Source: Candidatus Kapaibacterium sp.
GTDB lineage: Bacteria > Bacteroidota > Ignavibacteria > Kapaibacteriales > UBA2268
DNA length: 64,000 bases
Direction: 5' to 3'
Assembly (NCBI GenBank): GCA_026418625.1
Contig: JAOABA010000022.1
Location: forward strand, 10,572 to 74,571
In this document: positions 7,147 through 49,890 of the stretch, piece after piece
Position numbering within the stretch: the stretch's first letter is position 1
Layout of the letters: the number at the start of each line of letters is the position of its first letter
Made by a program: the position numbers and the translations under genes
The notes under the pieces: model-generated
What the model was told of the DNA's origin: nothing
The model's input: the letters and a program-made list of their open reading frames with translations, nothing else
Database searches by the model: none

Positions 7147-7183
7147 AAAAAAGGGGTGGCATAAATAAAATGACACCCCTTTG
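7147..7183 (-). terminator. Rho-independent terminator downstream of rpoC.
   Basis: On the minus strand CAAAGGGGTGTCAT...ATGCCACCCCTTTTTT: a 9-bp GC-rich stem followed by a T-run, just 3' of the rpoC stop. Confidence 0.6.
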
Positions 7184-18725: not shown

Positions 18726-18800
18726 TGCACGGGTGGAAGGACTTGAACCCTCAGCCTACGGTTTTGGAGACCGCCGCTCTGCCAATTGAGCTACACCCGT
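18726..18800 (-). tRNA. tRNA-Trp (anticodon CCA).
   Basis: Hand-folded cloverleaf: acceptor ACGGGTG/CACCCGT, anticodon loop CTCCAAA, T-loop GGTTCAAGTCC. Confidence 0.8.
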
Positions 18801-18806
18801 AAAATC

Positions 18807-18881
<75 letters not shown>

Positions 18882-18885
18882 AGAG

Positions 18886-18960
18886 CGGAGCGGGAAACGG
18901 GGTTCGAACCCGCGACCCTCAGCTTGGGAAGCTGATGCTCTACCAGCTGAGCTACTCCCG
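18886..18960 (-). tRNA. tRNA-Gly (anticodon CCC).
   Basis: GCGGGAGTAGCTCAGCTGGTAGAGC...anticodon loop TTCCCAA...GGTTCGAACC. Confidence 0.8.
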
Positions 18961-18992
18961 CTTTTCAAAAACACACCATTATAAACAACTTG

Positions 18993-19065
18993 AGCGGGAG
19001 ACGAGGCTCGAACCCGCGACCCTCAGCTTGGAAGGCTGATGCTCTACCAACTGAGCTACTCCCGC
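18993..19065 (-). tRNA. tRNA-Gly (anticodon TCC).
   Basis: GCGGGAGTAGCTCAGTTGGTAGAGC...anticodon loop CTTCCAA...GGTTCGAGCC. Confidence 0.8.
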
Positions 19066-19079
19066 ATTTTTTCTCTTTG

Positions 19080-19163
19080 TGGGCAGGGAAGGATTCGAAC
19101 CTCCGTAGGGCTGAGCCCAGCAGATTTACAGTCTGCCCCGTTTAACCGCTTCGGTACCTACCC
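19080..19163 (-). tRNA. tRNA-Tyr (anticodon GTA), with a long variable arm.
   Basis: GGGTAGGTACCGAAGCGGTTAAACGGG...anticodon loop CTGTAAA...variable arm GGGCTCAGCCCTAC...GGTTCGAATCC. Confidence 0.8.
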
Positions 19164-37791: not shown

Positions 37792-40227
37792 TCAGATAGC
37801 TCTTAATTTAGCGTTAAATTTCTTCTCAACTTTGCCAATTATATTGTCAATAACAGTTGTGATTTCTTTTTCTTCGAGAGTGTGATCTTCAGAATTAAAT
37901 ACCATCGAGAAGGCAATGCTTTTCGTCCCTTCAGGAATATTTTTTCCTTTATATAAATCGAAAATTTCAAGGCTTTTTAGCAGTTTTCCACCTTCTTTAA
38001 TTATCTCTTCATACAATAAGTTGGCAGGTAGATTATCCTCCACAAGAAAAGCTAAATCCCTTAGAACCGGTGGATAAGGCGAAACCTTTTGATATTTGTT
38101 TTCCTTTTGCTCAATTTTTCTTAGCTCCGTCAGATTCAGCCTTAAAATGTAAACTGGATGTCTAATATCATATTTTTGCTGAAATTCCTTACTGATTTCT
38201 CCAATTTCACCAATTATTTTCTCATTTAAATAAATAGCAAGATGATTAGCGTTGAAAATCTTGCTCTGTCCATTCGAATTATTTAGTATCAAAGTTCCGA
38301 GATTGAAGAAATTCTTTAAATCTTCAAAAATTCCTTTTATATCATAAAAATCTACTAATCTTGGTTTTTCGTCCCATCGAGTAGGTGATATTTCGCCCGA
38401 AATAGCAACCATAAGCTCTTCGATTTCCAGCACATTATGAATGAATTCATCAGCTGACTCAGTCCTGTGGAAAGACTTGCCAATTTCGAAAATCCGAATA
38501 TTTGAGGTTCCAAGAGCATTATTCCTTCCAATTGTTTTCAGAAATGAGGGAACGAGGGAAGTCCTCATCATTGACAATTGTTCACCTAAAGGATTCGAAA
38601 TTTTGAATGGAGTCTCGCCCATTATCTCGGCTGACTCAGGATCAACAATGTTTTGTGTTATGACCTCATTAAATCCCGAATAAGTCAAAAATCTTTTAAT
38701 CTTTTCCCTGAATGGATTAACCTGCAATTTCTCAGGAACTCCTTTTCCTGAAAAATCAATATTGCTCGTAAAGTCAGGAGAAAGGTTATCATAATTATAT
38801 AACCTTGCAATTTCTTCAATTAAATCAATTTCGAGCGATATGTCAACACGGTAATTTGGAATTTCAACCTGAATTTGGTTTGCATCCTCCGATATAATAT
38901 TAATGCCAAGTGATTTTAGCAGAGATTTAATCGTTTCATTTGATATTTCCAAGCCAATAATGTCCTTAGCTCTTTGAAATCTTAAATTTATGACTGGTTT
39001 GGCTTTTTTGACAGGGTAAACATCCATTACACCGCTTTCAGGTTCACCTCCGCAAATTTCTGCAATGAGTTGAGTGGCTCTGTTCGAAGCATAAATGATA
39101 TTATCAATATCAACACCTCGCTCGAAGCGATATGATGACTCGCTTTGTATTCCAAGCTTTTTCGATGTCCGCCTAATGGAGGAGGGATTGAAATAAGCTG
39201 ATTCGATAAGAACATTAGTTGTATTGTCGTTAATCTCGCTGTTTAACCCACCCATAACACCACCGATTGCAACAGACCTTTCGCCGTCACATATCATTAA
39301 AACAGAACTGTCAAGTTGTCGCTCAGTGTTGTCAAGAGTAATAAATTTTTCAGCGTCATTCGCTGATTTAACAATTATCTTATTCCCTTTCAGCAAATCT
39401 AAATCAAAAGCGTGAAGTGGCTGCCCGCATTCGAGCAATATATAATTCGTTATATCAACTACATTGTTAATAGGTCTTTGCCCTAACATTTTCAATCTGT
39501 TTTTGAGCCATTGAGGTGATTCGCTTACCTTTACATTTCGTATAACCCTTGCAGTATAACGTGGGCAATTCTCAACATCAATAATTTCAACACTGACTGA
39601 GTCCTCTGATTTAGTGTCAGCTTCATTAAAATTAATTTTGGGGTATTTAATTGGAACTTCTTTTCCAAAATTATATGAAATATAAGCCGCTATCTCTCTT
39701 GCAATACCGATATGGCTCAAACAATCGGAGCGGTTTGGTGTTATTCCGACTTCAAATACGATATCATTTACTCCAAGATAATCCGCAAGGCTAATTCCAT
39801 CAGTTACTTCTTGCGGTAAAACCCAAATTCCGCTTTTATCTTCGCCCAGACCAAGCTCATATTCCGAACAAATCATACCTTCGGAAACAATGTTTCTAAC
39901 TGGTCTGGTTTCGAGCTTTAAGCCATTTACAGGAACGATGGCTCCGGGCAGACCCAAAATAACAGATTGACCTGCAGCGACATTCGATGCTCCACAAACA
40001 ACAGTTCTAACATCTTCGTTTATTTTAACCTTGCAAACGGATAATTTGTCGGCATTTGGATGTTTCTCCTTTTCCAATACCTTAGCCGTAAAAAAACCTT
40101 GATATTTCTCTGCATAATTTTCAACAGCATCTATCTCAAGCCCGAGCATTGTCAATATATCAGAAAGCTCGGAAACACTGAAATCAAAGTCTATTAATTC
40201 TCTAAGCCAATTATAAGAAACAAGCAT
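37792..40227 (-). CDS. pheT: Phenylalanine--tRNA ligase beta subunit.
   Basis: 811 aa; the N-terminus MLVSYNWLRELIDFDFSVSELSDILTMLGLE and the B3/4, B5 and FDX-ACB domain order. Confidence 0.92.
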   Translation of the reverse strand: MLVSYNWLRELIDFDFSVSELSDILTMLGLEIDAVENYAEKYQGFFTAKVLEKEKHPNADKLSVCKVKINEDVRTVVCGASNVAAGQSVILGLPGAIVPVNGLKLETRPVRNIVSEGMICSEYELGLGEDKSGIWVLPQEVTDGISLADYLGVNDIVFEVGITPNRSDCLSHIGIAREIAAYISYNFGKEVPIKYPKINFNEADTKSEDSVSVEIIDVENCPRYTARVIRNVKVSESPQWLKNRLKMLGQRPINNVVDITNYILLECGQPLHAFDLDLLKGNKIIVKSANDAEKFITLDNTERQLDSSVLMICDGERSVAIGGVMGGLNSEINDNTTNVLIESAYFNPSSIRRTSKKLGIQSESSYRFERGVDIDNIIYASNRATQLIAEICGGEPESGVMDVYPVKKAKPVINLRFQRAKDIIGLEISNETIKSLLKSLGINIISEDANQIQVEIPNYRVDISLEIDLIEEIARLYNYDNLSPDFTSNIDFSGKGVPEKLQVNPFREKIKRFLTYSGFNEVITQNIVDPESAEIMGETPFKISNPLGEQLSMMRTSLVPSFLKTIGRNNALGTSNIRIFEIGKSFHRTESADEFIHNVLEIEELMVAISGEISPTRWDEKPRLVDFYDIKGIFEDLKNFFNLGTLILNNSNGQSKIFNANHLAIYLNEKIIGEIGEISKEFQQKYDIRHPVYILRLNLTELRKIEQKENKYQKVSPYPPVLRDLAFLVEDNLPANLLYEEIIKEGGKLLKSLEIFDLYKGKNIPEGTKSIAFSMVFNSEDHTLEEKEITTVIDNIIGKVEKKFNAKLRAI

Positions 40228-40322
40228 AAAAAAATAATATAAGTAATTAAAAGAATTGCAAATTAGTCAATTTAGATGAAATTTTTATTACCAAATTCCT
40301 CCAAGAAAAAATTGGGAATAAA

Positions 40323-40531
40323 TTTACTATGTCCGTCTTGGTGATTGGGTGGGGAAGTTTGTCAAAATTGAATAGCAACTACTTTCAAGTAGTGGAGAAA
40401 TAAATCATTTTTAAAGGTGCTTTACTGTAGAAACAACATCCCAGTCTGTGCAACAAAAGATGTCCTACACCTTTGAGGTGTAGGACATCTGAAAAATAGC
40501 TTTTTTGTCACTCTGAACGAAGTGAAGAGTC
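40323..40531 (+). repeat. Copy 1 of a ~205-bp hairpin-rich dispersed intergenic element (R element).
   Basis: About 90% identical to 40733-40936. It contains the 13-bp stem hairpin GATGTCCTACACC-TTTGA-GGTGTAGGACATC (40459-40489) and the hairpin ACTACTT-TCA-AGTAGT. Confidence 0.85.
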
Positions 40532-40663
40532 AATAATAATTCAATGACTTATGTGATATGGATTCTTCGCCTTCGGCTCCTAATAACTCCTTTTTACACA
40601 GCCTCGCATACAGGAATCTGAATTCATGATTTTCAACATCCTTTGCGAATTTGTTTTATCCAT

Positions 40664-40687
40664 AGAGACACAGAATTCTGTGTCTCT
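40664..40687. repeat. Perfect 24-bp palindrome between the two R-element copies.
   Basis: AGAGACACAGAA|TTCTGTGTCTCT, read directly from the sequence. Confidence 0.85.
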
Positions 40688-40732
40688 ACAGAGGATTGAT
40701 GTTTCAAATTTGCCATCAGGGCTTTACTATGT

Positions 40733-40936
40733 CCGTCTTCATGATTGGGTGGGGAAGTTTGTCAAAATTGAATAGCCACTACTTTTAAGTAGTGGAGAAA
40801 AAAATCATTTTTAAAGGTGCTTTCCGTTAGAACAGACTCCTCTTTCCGTGCAAAAAAGATGTCCTACACCTCTAAGGTGTAGGACATCTGAATAAATAGT
40901 ATTTTCGTAACACTTCACTTCGTTCAGAGTGACAAA
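40733..40936 (+). repeat. Copy 2 of the R element.
   Basis: Same order of motifs as copy 1. The hairpin at 40858-40888 keeps the identical 13-bp stem but carries a different loop (TCTAA). The terminal 21-nt segment (40913-40933) is the exact reverse complement of 40507-40527 in copy 1. Confidence 0.85.
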
Positions 40937-40970
40937 GAATCATTTTTTATACTTTTTACACAGCCTAAGA

Positions 40971-41195
40971 GGCAGGAGTTTTAGAGAATACAAAAGATTC
41001 CTGTTTGCACAGGAATGACGATGATTTTGACGGTGTCACTCCTGCGAAGGCAGGAGTTTTAAAGAACACAAAAGATTCCTGTTTGCACAGGAATGACGAT
41101 GATTTTGACGGTGTCACTCCTGCGAAGGCAGGAGTCTTAGAGTAATGAAGAGATTCCTGTCTCCACAGGAATGACAGGGAAGTTGGGGAAATCTC
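40971..41195 (+). repeat. Tandem direct repeat: 78-bp unit x 2.7, each unit with two hairpins.
   Basis: Units begin at 40971, 41049 and 41127 (GGCAGGAGTTTTAGAG...). The inner hairpin ATTCCTGT-TTGC-ACAGGAAT and the unit-junction hairpin CACTCCTGC-GAAG-GCAGGAGT(G) are both present. The third unit is diverged, with loop CTCC on a conserved stem. Confidence 0.85.
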
Positions 41196-41209
41196 TTAAT
41201 TAACAGTTA

Positions 41210-41500
41210 TTATTCTCCAAGAAGATATCTTGTAATTTCTTCCCATTCCTCTTCGAAAGTAGTTTTTGGTTTTGGACGTCCTGCAATGGAATACCAATAG
41301 GATGCATTCCATTCATTGGGCTCTTTTCTGTGAAGATAGGCATGAACCCAAGCAGCAGTTTTCGTATTCATTGCTTGAACAATATTATGAGCCTTGTCCC
41401 AGTTTCCTTGTGCTTCAAACCAAAGTGCCACGAGTTCTTTGCTAATTCCCGCTGGTGGATTTTCTTGATTTAATGTAGATTTAAATTCCTCAAATGTCAT
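41210..41500 (-). CDS. Hypothetical small protein (96 aa).
   Basis: The ORF begins 2 nt after the ispD stop and is Trp/His-rich. No recognisable family; coding status is plausible from operon context only. Confidence 0.4.
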   Translation of the reverse strand: MTFEEFKSTLNQENPPAGISKELVALWFEAQGNWDKAHNIVQAMNTKTAAWVHAYLHRKEPNEWNASYWYSIAGRPKPKTTFEEEWEEITRYLLGE

Positions 41501-48022: not shown

Positions 48023-48564
48023 ATGCATTAGAAAGAGATGGTTTTCTTACCACAACGGTAGAAAACGTTATTAAATGGGCACAAAAAAATTCTTTGTGGC
48101 CTATGCCGCTGGGTATATCCTGCTGTGCCATTGAGATGATGGCATTTGCCTCGCCAAGATTCGATGTTTCAAGATTTGGTTCGGAAGTTTTCAGGATGTC
48201 CCCAAGACAATCTGATTTACTGATAGTTGCCGGAACAGTTACTTACAAAATGTCTTGGGTTGTCCGTAAAATTTATGACCAGATGCCTGATCCCAAATGG
48301 GTGATTTCAATGGGGGTCTGTGCATCAACTGGTGGTATGTTCCGCAGCTATTCAGTTGTTCAAGGGATTGATCAGTTCCTTCCGGTTGATGCTTATGTTT
48401 CGGGGTGTCCCCCAAGACCAGAGGCTCTAATCAAAGCCCTTATGCTTATTCAGGAAAAAGTTCAGAAAGCACATAAACCAGATCTATTCAATTTCGGAAA
48501 GAATGTTTCTCCAACACCTGTTCAGAAACCTTTCCCGTCAAAACTGACTGAAGTGCACGTTTAA
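48013..48564 (+). CDS. nuoB: NADH-quinone oxidoreductase subunit B (N2 cluster subunit).
   Basis: CCAIEMM, GxCxxxGG ([11 protein letters not shown]) and VSGCPPRPE Fe-S ligand motifs. Confidence 0.9.
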
Positions 48565-48705
48565 AGCATTGATAAAATCACAGAATATAAATCTTAAAGG
48601 GATGTTTGTTCTAATATTTGGATAAACATCCTTTTTTGTTATAAATTAAGACCACCTCTTCTTCTTCCCTTTTTCACATTCCTGTGACGGCTGAAATATG
48701 AAATC

Positions 48706-48960
48706 AGGCTTTAAGGGAAGTTTGTAATGATTGAATAGCCACTTCTTTTAAGTAGTGGGTAAAAAAAATATTTCCAATAATGCCTTCGGTTAGAATAGAC
48801 AACCCTTTTTGTGTAACAAAAGATGTCCCACACCTCTAAGGTGTAGGACATCTGAAAAGATAGTATTTTTGTCACTCTTCACTGAGTTCAGAGTGACAAA
48901 CAACCACTTTTTATGCTTTTTACACAGCCTCATGCACAGAAATGACTTTGAAAGTGCAAT
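48706..48960 (+). repeat. Copy 3 of the R element plus a degenerate 78-bp-type unit, in the convergent intergenic region after nuoB.
   Basis: Same motif order as 40323-40531, but it lacks the first ~28 nt. The hairpin at 48822-48852 has one mismatch in its stem. It is followed by TTTTTACACAGCCT and a degenerate unit, as at the 40.9 kb locus. Confidence 0.8.
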
Positions 48961-49041
48961 AAAAGCTGTCCGACATCTTGAAAATGTCGGACAGCTCAAC
49001 ATAATTATTTGGTTTAGAAGAACAAAACGCTTCGAGTATTT

Positions 49042-49890
49042 TTACTTCCTCCTGAAAACAGCGTCAGAGCGAAATTCGAGCTTGGAATCAATTGTAGTCA
49101 ATCGAGTATTTTTCAGTTGAATTTCATAAGGAACTTGCTCCATTTGGTTAGAACCTGCTTTTTTTGATGGCTTTGGAAATTGAACTTCTGTATTGATTGC
49201 TATAGGAACTGCCATAGGTTTCATTATATCTGCGAATTCAAGCTGAGAATCATAACCCCAAGGAATTTTCCACTCAAGCAATTTGAAAAAGAACTTTGTC
49301 TTTAAAGTCAGTTTTGCCGGACGAGGCTTAAGAACTATATATCCGCTGTCAGTGCCTTCAAGATTGAACGAAACCGGTTCGTTCAGGTAAATTTGAACTT
49401 CAGGTGAAATAGAAGCAGGAACGCCGATATATTTACCTGAAGCGCTGATAGCTCCCTTCCCCTCTATTTCAATTTTTCCCTCAATAATATTCTTATCAAA
49501 TTTAGAAAAATTTATTGCTTTGATATTAACCGAAAAACTTCCAGTATCAATATTGATGTAGTTTGTGTAGTTGATACCTAAAACCGATTTATCCTCTTTA
49601 ACCACATTTTTCGATTGCCGGAAAATAATCTTAATATCATCTTCTCTTCTATTGGAAAGAGCTTTCAATATAGTATTTAAAGGATTAACACTTAAACGAA
49701 GGATAAAATCATTCCCTGAGGGTAGATTTTTTGTTCTGTCATCTATGTTTCTATCAGCTAAATTGATTTGAGGTTGATAAAAATCAATCAATTTTTGTGA
49801 TTGTTCAATTGTCGGCAAGTCAATACTTTTACATCCAAACAAAGTGATAATAATTGATATGAATATAAAAATTAAACTGTAACTTTTCAT
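49042..49890 (-). CDS. Hypothetical lipoprotein.
   Basis: Signal peptide with lipobox LFGC. No recognisable domain. Confidence 0.45.
   Translation of the reverse strand: MKSYSLIFIFISIIITLFGCKSIDLPTIEQSQKLIDFYQPQINLADRNIDDRTKNLPSGNDFILRLSVNPLNTILKALSNRREDDIKIIFRQSKNVVKEDKSVLGINYTNYINIDTGSFSVNIKAINFSKFDKNIIEGKIEIEGKGAISASGKYIGVPASISPEVQIYLNEPVSFNLEGTDSGYIVLKPRPAKLTLKTKFFFKLLEWKIPWGYDSQLEFADIMKPMAVPIAINTEVQFPKPSKKAGSNQMEQVPYEIQLKNTRLTTIDSKLEFRSDAVFRRK

Follow-up and report, generated by a model that had tools for sequence, protein, structure and literature searches.

Several described systems come close to the sequences considered here. One is the CGTC-tagged class of REPs (repetitive extragenic palindromes), known from Bacteroidetes, Chlorobi and others (Di Nocera et al. 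2013, PMC3733652), whose members carry a CGTC or TGTC tag, a stem of 8-9 bp that starts with AT and a loop of 4-5 nt, and mostly form head-to-head dimers (PMC3733652). Another is the type-A sorting domain of type IX secretion (T9SS; PF18962, TIGR04183), of which coding remnants are present in the repeat described below. Two further systems offer partial parallels. Rickettsia palindromic elements are in-frame palindromic insertions, and the orphans of CdiA-CT/Rhs systems are gene-less C-terminal modules that lie downstream of polymorphic-toxin genes.

The repeat lies in a stretch of 64,000 nucleotides from Candidatus Kapaibacterium sp., the whole of which was analysed and is called the window here. 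With a probability of about 0.6, we consider the repeat to be an orphaned tail cassette of a T9SS cargo gene that was spread by palindrome-associated recombination and is a by-product of it.

The repeat, its junctions and its site

Repeat search and alignment reveal three diverged copies (A, B and C) of one repeat in the window. The third, which the first-pass annotation had reported as a copy of an element of about 205 bp, is confirmed at 48698-48930. With three diverged copies in the window the repeat is, as was proposed there, a dispersed family and not a single local duplication. In the three-copy alignment core identity is 82.7% between A and B, 83.4% between B and C and 74.4% between A and C; our comparison of the family is based on these full copies and on fragments in three other contigs (L002, L202 and L203).

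Copy A occupies 40322-40604 (plus strand) and consists of a 17-codon tail (40322-40375), the hairpins HP1 (40370-40395, plus strand), HP2 (40458-40490) and HP3 (40507-40532, with its loop inverted) and an end motif (40590-40604), with about 60 extra nucleotides between HP3 and the end motif in this order of features. Copy B, at 40587-40966 on the same strand, begins with a remnant ORF of 62 codons (40587-40775, plus strand), in which the sorting domain proper starts at 40626 and an in-frame palindrome lies at 40663-40688; HP1 (40770-40795, plus strand), HP2 (40857-40889), HP3 (40907-40933) and the end motif (40952-40966) follow. In copy C a decayed sorting-domain tail (48698-48738, plus strand) leads into HP1 (48733-48758, plus strand), a GAATAG-tagged hairpin CCACTTC/GTAGTGG with one T-T mismatch, where the general form is CCACTAC-TTTYAA-GTAGTGG. 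An A-rich spacer (48759-48820, plus strand) comes next, then HP2 (48821-48853, minus strand, with the minus-strand tail TTTGTTAC), HP3 (48871-48897, GTCACTCT-11 nt-AGAGTGAC) and the end motif (48916-48930, plus strand). HP2 is a palindrome with a 15-bp stem in all three copies, of the general form AGATGTCCTACACCT-NNN-AGGTGTAGGACATCT, and the single C-for-T stem mismatch noted earlier in this long hairpin of copy C is present. The order of the element at 40.3 kb, HP1-HP2-HP3-CTTTTTACACAGCCT, is kept in copy C, as had been claimed. The 15-mer of the end motif has exactly three exact occurrences in the window, where it is the shared 3' terminus of all copies, and no further exact one in 1.37 Mb of other fetched loci.

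The limits of copy C required correction. Its start had been placed at 48706, about 28 nt later than in the other two copies; in the alignment it can be matched to copy B from about 48698 onward, and what it has instead of a later start is an internal deletion of 24-25 nt. At the other end the shared motif is indeed there. The degenerate 78-bp-like unit reported behind it is not: what follows is no more than one REP's loop and 3' arm. The range 48600-49041 assigned to the element does include copy C, and 48596-48635, which overlaps the beginning of that range, belongs to the nuoB terminator and not to the element.

The 78-bp units themselves, of which there are three at 40970-41203 (minus strand), had been left without an identity. 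By their pattern of tag, stem and loop they are head-to-head dimers of CGTC/TGTC-tagged REPs. Their halves, ATTCCTGT-GCAA-ACAGGAAT with a CGTC tag and TGTC-ACTCCTGC-GAAG-GCAGGAGT, face each other, and the first half also appears as ATTCCTGT-TTGC-ACAGGAAT-GACG. The traits of the CGTC-tagged class are found in these units and in the REP halves at the junctions of the copies alike. The 5' junction of copy C is a degenerate CGTC-type REP (48678-48697, ATTCCTGT-GACG-GCTGAAAT); it departs from the REP pattern at three positions, and its orthologs in two contigs discussed below are complete REPs. At the 3' junction there is a second CGTC-type REP, represented by its loop, 3' arm and tag (48931-48946, CATG-CACAGAAAT-GAC); 19 nt here match positions 36-55 of the 78-bp unit. 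All three copies end at the same base and continue into a REP loop and 3' arm, which is CGCAT-ACAGGAAT-CTG after copy A and AAGAG-GCAGGAGT-TTT after copy B. The 5' ends are less uniform: copy C is preceded by a complete but degenerate REP, copy B by a REP 3' arm and copy A by a local hairpin, and the first 13 codons of the ORF in copy B are derived from a REP. Inserts of another kind also sit in REP loops in a related lineage.

The surroundings of the copies are thus like REP/BIME clusters in their short tagged palindromes with 8-bp stems starting from AT, 4-nt loops and head-to-head dimers, and also in their intergenic clustering, mostly at 3' gene ends, and their mosaics with other motifs. 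The 205-bp unit, unlike its surroundings, is not itself a REP: it holds a remnant of a coding gene and three other hairpins, HP1-HP3, which have stems of 13-15 bp and neither a CGTC nor a GTAG tag.

Two Logan contigs, L001 of a sister strain and L002 from a second sample, encode a NuoB identical to that of the window. In L002 the same 5' REP is followed by the same start of copy C, while L001 has, after the same 5' REP, about 1.6 degenerate 78-bp REP units at the position of copy C. The strains thus differ here by a replacement with REPs at its bounds, which makes the site polymorphic; between L001 and the window it is a replacement with further indels. We had considered a simple insertion of copy C into one REP loop and rejected it, the 5' REP being complete in the window, L001 and L002. 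Comparison of the three sites indicates that the event would have been a replacement that runs from after the first REP to the loop of the second. A contig with 97% identity (L202) ends within HP3-like sequence near the same gene. More distant relatives, at 80-87% protein identity (L197-L201), differ in synteny, and 80 kb of their sequence contained nothing of the element; in one of them, L201, the gene that converges on the homolog of the 282-aa gene from its 3' side encodes a T9SS M1 peptidase with a sorting domain of a different type. A search of viral contigs for HP1 and HP2 gave 0 matches, hence no sign of carriage by phage.

Copy C lies between convergent genes: nuoB, on the plus strand like nuoA, ends at 48564, and an ORF of 282 aa (N2319_04435) ends at 49042 on the minus strand. 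The intrinsic terminator of nuoAB (48596-48635, plus strand) has a stem of 16 pairs followed by TTTTTTGTT. From its sequence, a hairpin with a T-run at 48964-48996 is the probable terminator of the 282-aa gene. Since these two predicted terminators flank copy C, it would sit in a transcriptionally quiet gap, and the earlier argument that it is not a cis-regulatory leader stands. In a terminator scan HP2 of each of the three copies scores as a minus-strand terminator, and the 78-bp units have REPs that are predicted to be terminator-like on that strand too; over 40150-41300 the scan found 5 sites where 0.6 were expected. On the minus strand, copies A and B and the REP array stand between the ispD/96-aa unit and the pheT promoter. 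Redundant termination or insulation is at most what the element could contribute as a function.

The sorting-domain tail

The GAATAG tag of HP1 provides the stop codon of a reading frame, and in copy B the frame ending at this TAG is open for 62 codons (LLFTQPRIQESEFMIFNILCEFVLSIETQNSVSLQRIDVSNLPSGLYYVRLHDWVGKFVKIE). The 62-aa remnant scores 29.8 bits against PF18962 (Por_Secre_tail), above the gathering score of 27, and 20.9 bits against TIGR04183, just below the cut-off of 23; copies A and C are too short to be scored with either model. Copy A has 17 codons left (IYYVRLGDWVGKFVKIE). What copy C has of the domain starts about 60 nt upstream of the stop and ends in GKFVMIE-TAG; it keeps the last seven codons and a stretch that is broken by the deletion of 24-25 nt and an in-frame TAA. 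The 5' part of each copy, which is homologous to the last beta-strands of the domain, is the decayed coding tail of a T9SS type-A C-terminal sorting domain. This tail had gone unnoticed in the first-pass annotation, and the ORF of copy B passes the PF18962 threshold.

Related intact genes bear the same tail as the copies. Unlike them, the copies have neither a cargo body nor a signal peptide, their ORFs amount to 62, 17 and 7 codons (B, A and C), and the frame is decayed in two of the three, so they are remnants and not functional members of the sorting-domain family. The copies are a pseudogene fragment, not a secretion substrate. The sole database protein that matched the tail of copy B in a protein search is a 55-aa NCBI entry on a 95-kb contig of the MAG to which N2319_04435 also belongs, titled 'MAG: T9SS type A sorting domain-containing protein [Candidatus Kapabacteria bacterium]', and the search found no intact gene with exactly this tail.

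More can be learned from intact genes in metagenome contigs of the Ga0209381/Ga0101944 type, which represent a related lineage of the Ignavibacteria/Kapabacteria type. Here HP1 directly follows the stop codon of genes encoding 412-1572 aa, and these long genes end in ...IKIFNLLGECV...LRIDVSGLPAGVYFVRVGDWVGRFLKI or ...GVYFVRVGDWVGRFLKI, each followed by the stop. A C-terminal Por_Secre_tail was found in 8 of the 8 HP1-followed genes tested, on bodies that differ (BNR/Sortilin propellers, an SBBP/Ig protein and one with no other domain). When nine cargo genes were compared pairwise by blastn, DNA identity of 82-95% was confined to the tail and the 3' flank, with no blastn similarity further upstream; the shared blocks begin at -57, about -172 or about -258 nt from the stop and run to between +77 and +345. 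These comparisons show that, among cargo genes otherwise unlike each other, the secretion-signal tail has evolved in concert together with its 3' flank. The copies in the window start at -51 (A), at about -60 (C) and at the IKIFNLL/MIFNIL position (B), and by alignment their starts belong to the same classes of break-points. Our literature search found no papers that link T9SS sorting domains with REPs or MITEs.

The break-points flank spots with in-frame palindromes inside the sorting-domain coding sequence: the palindrome at 40663-40688 of the window, AACAAGGGGTTGCAACCCCTTGTT (NKGLQPLV), CCACGGCTTAAGCCGTGG (PRLKPWV) and REP-like THPLIPSQEG segments. Such in-frame palindromes are a likeness to the Rickettsia elements. 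The sequences and the phylum are different, however, and the palindromes here coincide with recombination break-points of gene tails.

Tails without genes are also common. The same metagenome contigs contain remnants of 53-86 aa, and all 46 of 46 matches of a profile search were ORFs of 43-101 aa, a result to be read with the reservation that long proteins may be under-represented in the word index. In L203, a sister-strain contig from the same sample as L001, an orphan tail with 82-85% identity to copies B and A stands behind an intact T9SS gene of 433 aa; L204 and L205 have the same arrangement, with a complete orphan sorting domain and HP1. These fragments resemble the CdiA-CT/Rhs orphans in lying downstream of full genes with which they share a short block of homology. 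In contrast to that system, the part exchanged here is a conserved export signal and not a variable toxin, and there is no immunity gene.

The hairpin modules

The element had been treated as a single unit, a view that overlooked that its hairpins are independent and widely dispersed modules, with HP1 and HP2 occurring apart. A metagenome scan yielded about 100 copies of HP1 in 81 loci, and in none of these 81 loci does HP2 or the end motif lie downstream of HP1. The spacer behind HP1 in copy C contains GGTTAGAATAGAC, by alignment a remnant of the AGAACAGACA hairpin that trails HP1 in related T9SS gene tails.

A genome scan for HP2, a palindrome of 33 nt, gave at least 113 loci, and the MAGs that carry them number at least 25 and belong to several phyla. 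Hosts among the matches listed include Bacteroidetes UR.bin11 (with dozens of copies), Flavihumibacter, Chitinophagaceae, Roseivirgaceae and Cyclobacteriaceae as well as Ignavibacteria, Kapaibacterium, Thermoflexales and Anaerolineae. What these loci have in common with the window is a hairpin of 35-55 nt only; the flanks differ by lineage. An outer A-T and an inner T-A pair, which were outside the search pattern, are nevertheless present in 124 of the 126 HP2 matches listed, and for this reason we regard HP2 as a real family. Its free stem position is seen as T-A, G-C, A-T and C-G in the matches listed. In a Kapaibacterium contig three adjoining hairpins keep AGATG...CAC-loop-GTG...CATCT and have middles that differ and are still complementary. 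Of the matches listed 86% are intergenic, convergent or co-directional gene ends being favoured, and HP2 frequently stands 3-25 nt 3' of a stop codon. A T-run adjoins 24% of the copies listed from other genomes, against a background of 15%, which makes HP2 look more like a REP than like a dedicated terminator. The possibility that HP2 is the junction of two abutted terminal repeats was dropped, as nearly all 'solo' half-sites are degenerate full hairpins. Published matches to the HP2 sequence in our literature search were unrelated primers only. The occurrence of this palindrome across phyla is a side result.

The hairpin at 48964-48996 (minus strand) is also of the HP2 family. It differs from HP2 by three compensated pairs and has the minus-strand tail TTTTATTG. 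It scores 49 bits in the HP2 model, a value to which its own presence among the training sequences contributes, and its degenerate ortholog in L001 scores 15.5 bits. This hairpin is separate from copy C and adjoins the downstream 282-aa gene.

Loops of these hairpins are found in both orientations. In copy A the HP3 loop of 11 nt reads as the exact reverse complement of its counterpart in copy B (GAACGAAGTGA and TCACTTCGTTC), and HP2 loops in UR.bin11 occur either way round regardless of flanks.

As to the end motif (TTTTTACACAGCCT), the 3' flank of the L203 tail has, in place of HP1-HP3, a simple hairpin AGGGCTGT-CCTTTTATTTATA-ACAGCCCT whose loop and 3' arm resemble it, and a similar terminator closes a gene of 1430 aa at 7150-7182 of the window. 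This likeness is suggestive only, and on its basis the motif might be what is left, as loop and 3' arm, of the terminator hairpin that the tail first had.

Origin of the element

Under the tail-cassette reading the element is made up of a decayed sorting-domain end (its final 7 to about 50 codons) with the stop in HP1, then the spacer, HP2 and HP3, and a remnant of an old terminator. The anatomy of the junctions suggests that such tails of cargo genes may have reached intergenic REP clusters by recombination at the DNA level that is associated with palindromes. Ectopic recombination or gene conversion, template switching at hairpins and possibly mobilisation of the REP-transposase type are candidate routes; copying would then proceed without a transposase acting on terminal repeats. 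The copies probably have no product of their own, and HP2 and the REPs would at most serve as redundant factor-independent terminators on the minus strand. One-ended mobilisation would also fit a common 3' end with variable 5' ends. For annotation of genomes of the Ignavibacteria/Kapabacteria type it would mean that many of the short 'T9SS type A sorting domain-containing proteins' are likely to be tails left without their genes rather than genes, and that conserved intergenic hairpin blocks need not be RNAs.

A bolder and doubtful extension of this reading can be suggested, in which the tail and its 3' hairpins form a mobile or convertible 'signal cassette' with REP-like palindromes, lying in frame in the sorting-domain loops and also in the 3' flank, as joints. 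Such a cassette would be exchanged among unrelated cargo genes and dropped into REP clusters, possibly by an HUH transposase of the REP type. The same doubt applies to its companion proposal, as the two are judged jointly: HP2 (AGATGTCC-N-ACACCT-N3-AGGTGT-N'-GGACATCT) would be a new cross-phylum palindrome superfamily (Bacteroidota, Ignavibacteria/Kapabacteria, Chloroflexota) beside the GTAG and CGTC classes. Were the exchange active, proteins could acquire, lose or renew a T9SS export signal in this way, and it would be a clear case of small palindromic repeats shaping coding sequence.

Other explanations that involve movement or loss of DNA have to be weighed against the tail-cassette reading. 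The element might be a MITE-like non-autonomous transposon, mobilised in trans and targeting REP loops, with the sorting-domain fragment as a captured passenger. REPs are known insertion targets of IS elements, and a small, non-coding, repeated element whose presence at the site of copy C differs between close strains is what one would expect of a MITE; so are the identical 3' terminus, always joined to a REP loop and 3' arm, the inserts in REP loops of the related lineage and an inverted repeat of 10 nt (TGTGTAACAA/TTTTTACACA) that encloses HP2 and HP3 in copy C. That repeat is imperfect in A and B, however, and the ends of the element have no terminal inverted repeats, sharing only the 5-nt GGCTG/CAGCC. 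Target-site duplications, which the first-pass annotation had named as the mark of a MITE, did not emerge when the junctions were read: copy C has at most 2 nt, and an AAGA around A and B taken together is not significant. The variable 5' ends, the failure to link any transposase to the element and its absence from both the 80 kb of the relatives at 80-87% identity and the viral contigs also speak against a transposon, which we consider unlikely. Slightly less likely still is that nothing was copied at all, and that the three copies are independent relics in situ of paralogous T9SS cargo genes with the same derived 3' flank whose bodies were deleted. This group has a high density of T9SS cargo genes, frequently in tandem, the peptidase gene of L201 stands next to the homolog of the 282-aa gene, and the micro-homology at the 5' junctions (ATGATTTT, ATGA) would suit deletion joints. 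But the sorting domain in L201 is of another type and in a different synteny, L001 has REP units and no tail at the site of copy C, the 400 nt between A and B leave no room for gene bodies, and deletion of this kind has to contend with three 3' ends at the same base against two REP subtypes. The idea of a C-terminal copy plus hairpin with a variable 5' end also led us to consider three other candidates, all of which were set aside: template repeats of a diversity-generating retroelement (no reverse-transcriptase domain in the scanned neighbour ORFs, the 96-aa ORF beside A and B being unmatched), 3' fragments of group II introns (no intron match in Rfam) and integron attC sites (HP2 is a perfect palindrome, unlike attC).

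Two explanations would give the element a product. A structured non-coding RNA, derived from a 3'-UTR or independent and with functional hairpins, was raised as a hypothesis in the first-pass annotation and now seems improbable. The region of copy C does fold well below shuffled sequences (z = -4.3 and -4.6 on the two strands), as is expected of any cluster of palindromes; the mismatch of its HP2, C-A on the plus strand, becomes a G-U pair on the minus strand, and the HP2 family keeps its pairing across lineages through double changes. The first-pass annotation had itself named compensatory changes as the test, however, and the 30 stem pairs of the three copies contain none, with 7 cells unpaired, which at n=3 and low power would amount to drift only. 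Nothing but tRNAs passes in Rfam at gathering or at permissive thresholds, the best sub-threshold scores being 38.7 against 66 for FtrB (in the 78-bp units) and 32.3 against 54 for PyrR. HP1 and HP2 are found apart from each other elsewhere, the HP3 loop is inverted in copy A, and copy C lies between two terminators. Hairpin template switching on DNA can maintain the symmetry of palindromes without selection; the flipped loops and the symmetry of lineage-specific HP2 variants would fit such switching, and selection on RNA would not be required.

The other product would be a protein. A sorting-domain-only ORF such as that of copy B (55 aa as annotated) could be a functional mini-protein or a silent reserve cassette for C-terminal signals, and we regard this as very improbable. 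Its frame is intact over 62 codons with a Pfam match, short ORFs of this kind are widespread, and tails are exchanged among genes. Against it, copies A and C are truncated, C with an in-frame stop, and the first 13 codons in B come from a REP. The ORF of copy B also has no N-terminal signal peptide and consequently no route to the periplasm for its product, and among the neighbour ORFs scanned with Pfam, two adjacent ones being unmatched, there is no recombinase or invertase. One orphan position is on the side of a function: the orphan behind the Reg_prop T9SS gene is kept across three assemblies (L203, L204 and L205), and some orphans could thus be retained for a reason.

The HP2 palindrome

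HP2, the second of the three hairpins that follow the decayed T9SS type-A sorting-domain tail in each copy of the ~205-bp element, is a perfect palindrome of 33 nt, AGATGTCC-N-ACACCT-N3-AGGTGT-N'-GGACATCT. In the window it lies at 40458-40490 (copy A), 40857-40889 (copy B) and 48821-48853 (copy C); the loci beyond the window (L003-L115) come from a genome scan. At least 25 MAGs carry it, from Bacteroidota, Ignavibacteria/Kapabacteria and Chloroflexota. Its central pair covaries, being T-A, G-C, A-T or C-G among the matches listed. We found no match for HP2 in Rfam or in the literature, and viral contigs gave 0 matches.

One of the scanned genomes, the MAG Bacteroidetes UR.bin11 (JAKIZN01), contains MITE-like units of ~150 nt centred on HP2 (e.g. 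L049:3430-3700). These units have outer inverted repeats CCAAATAATKCAWTAGRAAC and are assembled from a set of about five alternative flanking modules, freely combined. They number in the dozens, and in many of them a single mismatch is left uncompensated.

A hairpin related to HP2 adjoins the 282-aa gene that is convergent with nuoB (window 48964-48996) and has three pair changes, all compensated. Its ortholog in the sister strain with identical NuoB (L001:902-934) is degenerate, with 4 mismatches. In a relative at 80% identity (L201:10849-12870), a convergent T9SS M1 peptidase gene lies 6 nt past the 282-aa gene, in the orientation of the copy C tail; its sorting domain is of a different type.

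Neighbouring hairpins and repeat families

The 11-nt loop of the third hairpin, HP3, is in copy A (40515-40525) the exact reverse complement of that in copy B (40915-40925), and the reverse complement of the copy A loop nearly matches copy C as well. Between copies A and B the loop has flipped, flanked by arms that form an inverted repeat. The 78-bp tandem units at window 40970-41203 are CGTC/TGTC-tagged REPs dimerised head-to-head; against Rfam they gave a sub-threshold hit to FtrB (Francisella sRNA B; 38.7 versus 66 bits), which may itself be derived from REPs.

In metagenome loci, HP1, the GAATAG-tagged first hairpin, occurs in tandem arrays (L123:3390-3770, L178:7460-8243) whose ~119-nt unit combines it with another hairpin bearing the GAATAG tag (CCACGAGCTGAAGCACGTGG) and with GGCTAAAGCC. 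The Ga0209381-type lineage has an extra foldback element, AACCTTAGTAGAA...TTCTACTAAGGTT, within the loop of the REP that lies 3' of the tail cassette. This insert was seen at many loci (L116, L117, L128, L160, L187 and L188), 100-350 nt past the stop codons.

Over 38 nt, the terminator of a 1430-aa gene (window 7150-7182; AAAGGGGTG...CACCCCTTT, loop TCATTTTATTTATGC) shares 84% identity with the hairpin 3' of the orphan tail in the sister strain (L203), and ordinary terminators here also seem to be members of repeat families. Five clustered tRNA genes occupy 18728-19163 of the window, on the minus strand.

Sorting-domain coding sequences

Palindromes also occur in frame within sorting-domain coding sequence (window 40663-40688, the metagenome tails L116-L196 and proteins P0021-P0062). 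They encode the peptides IETQNSVSL, NKGLQPLV, PRLKPWV, THPLIPSQEG and SVAQTFPSVDSGQTGMSD, are located at loops between beta-strands, and are reminiscent of Rickettsia palindromic elements.

In 12 kb of an Ignavibacteriae MAG (L206; GCA_019637995.1, JAHBUQ010000001.1, 212806-225084), five short Por_Secre_tail ORFs (64-141 aa) are interspersed with full cargo genes. There a 463-aa BNR protein is followed, after 40 nt, by a separate 64-aa sorting-domain ORF, and the two look like a split gene.
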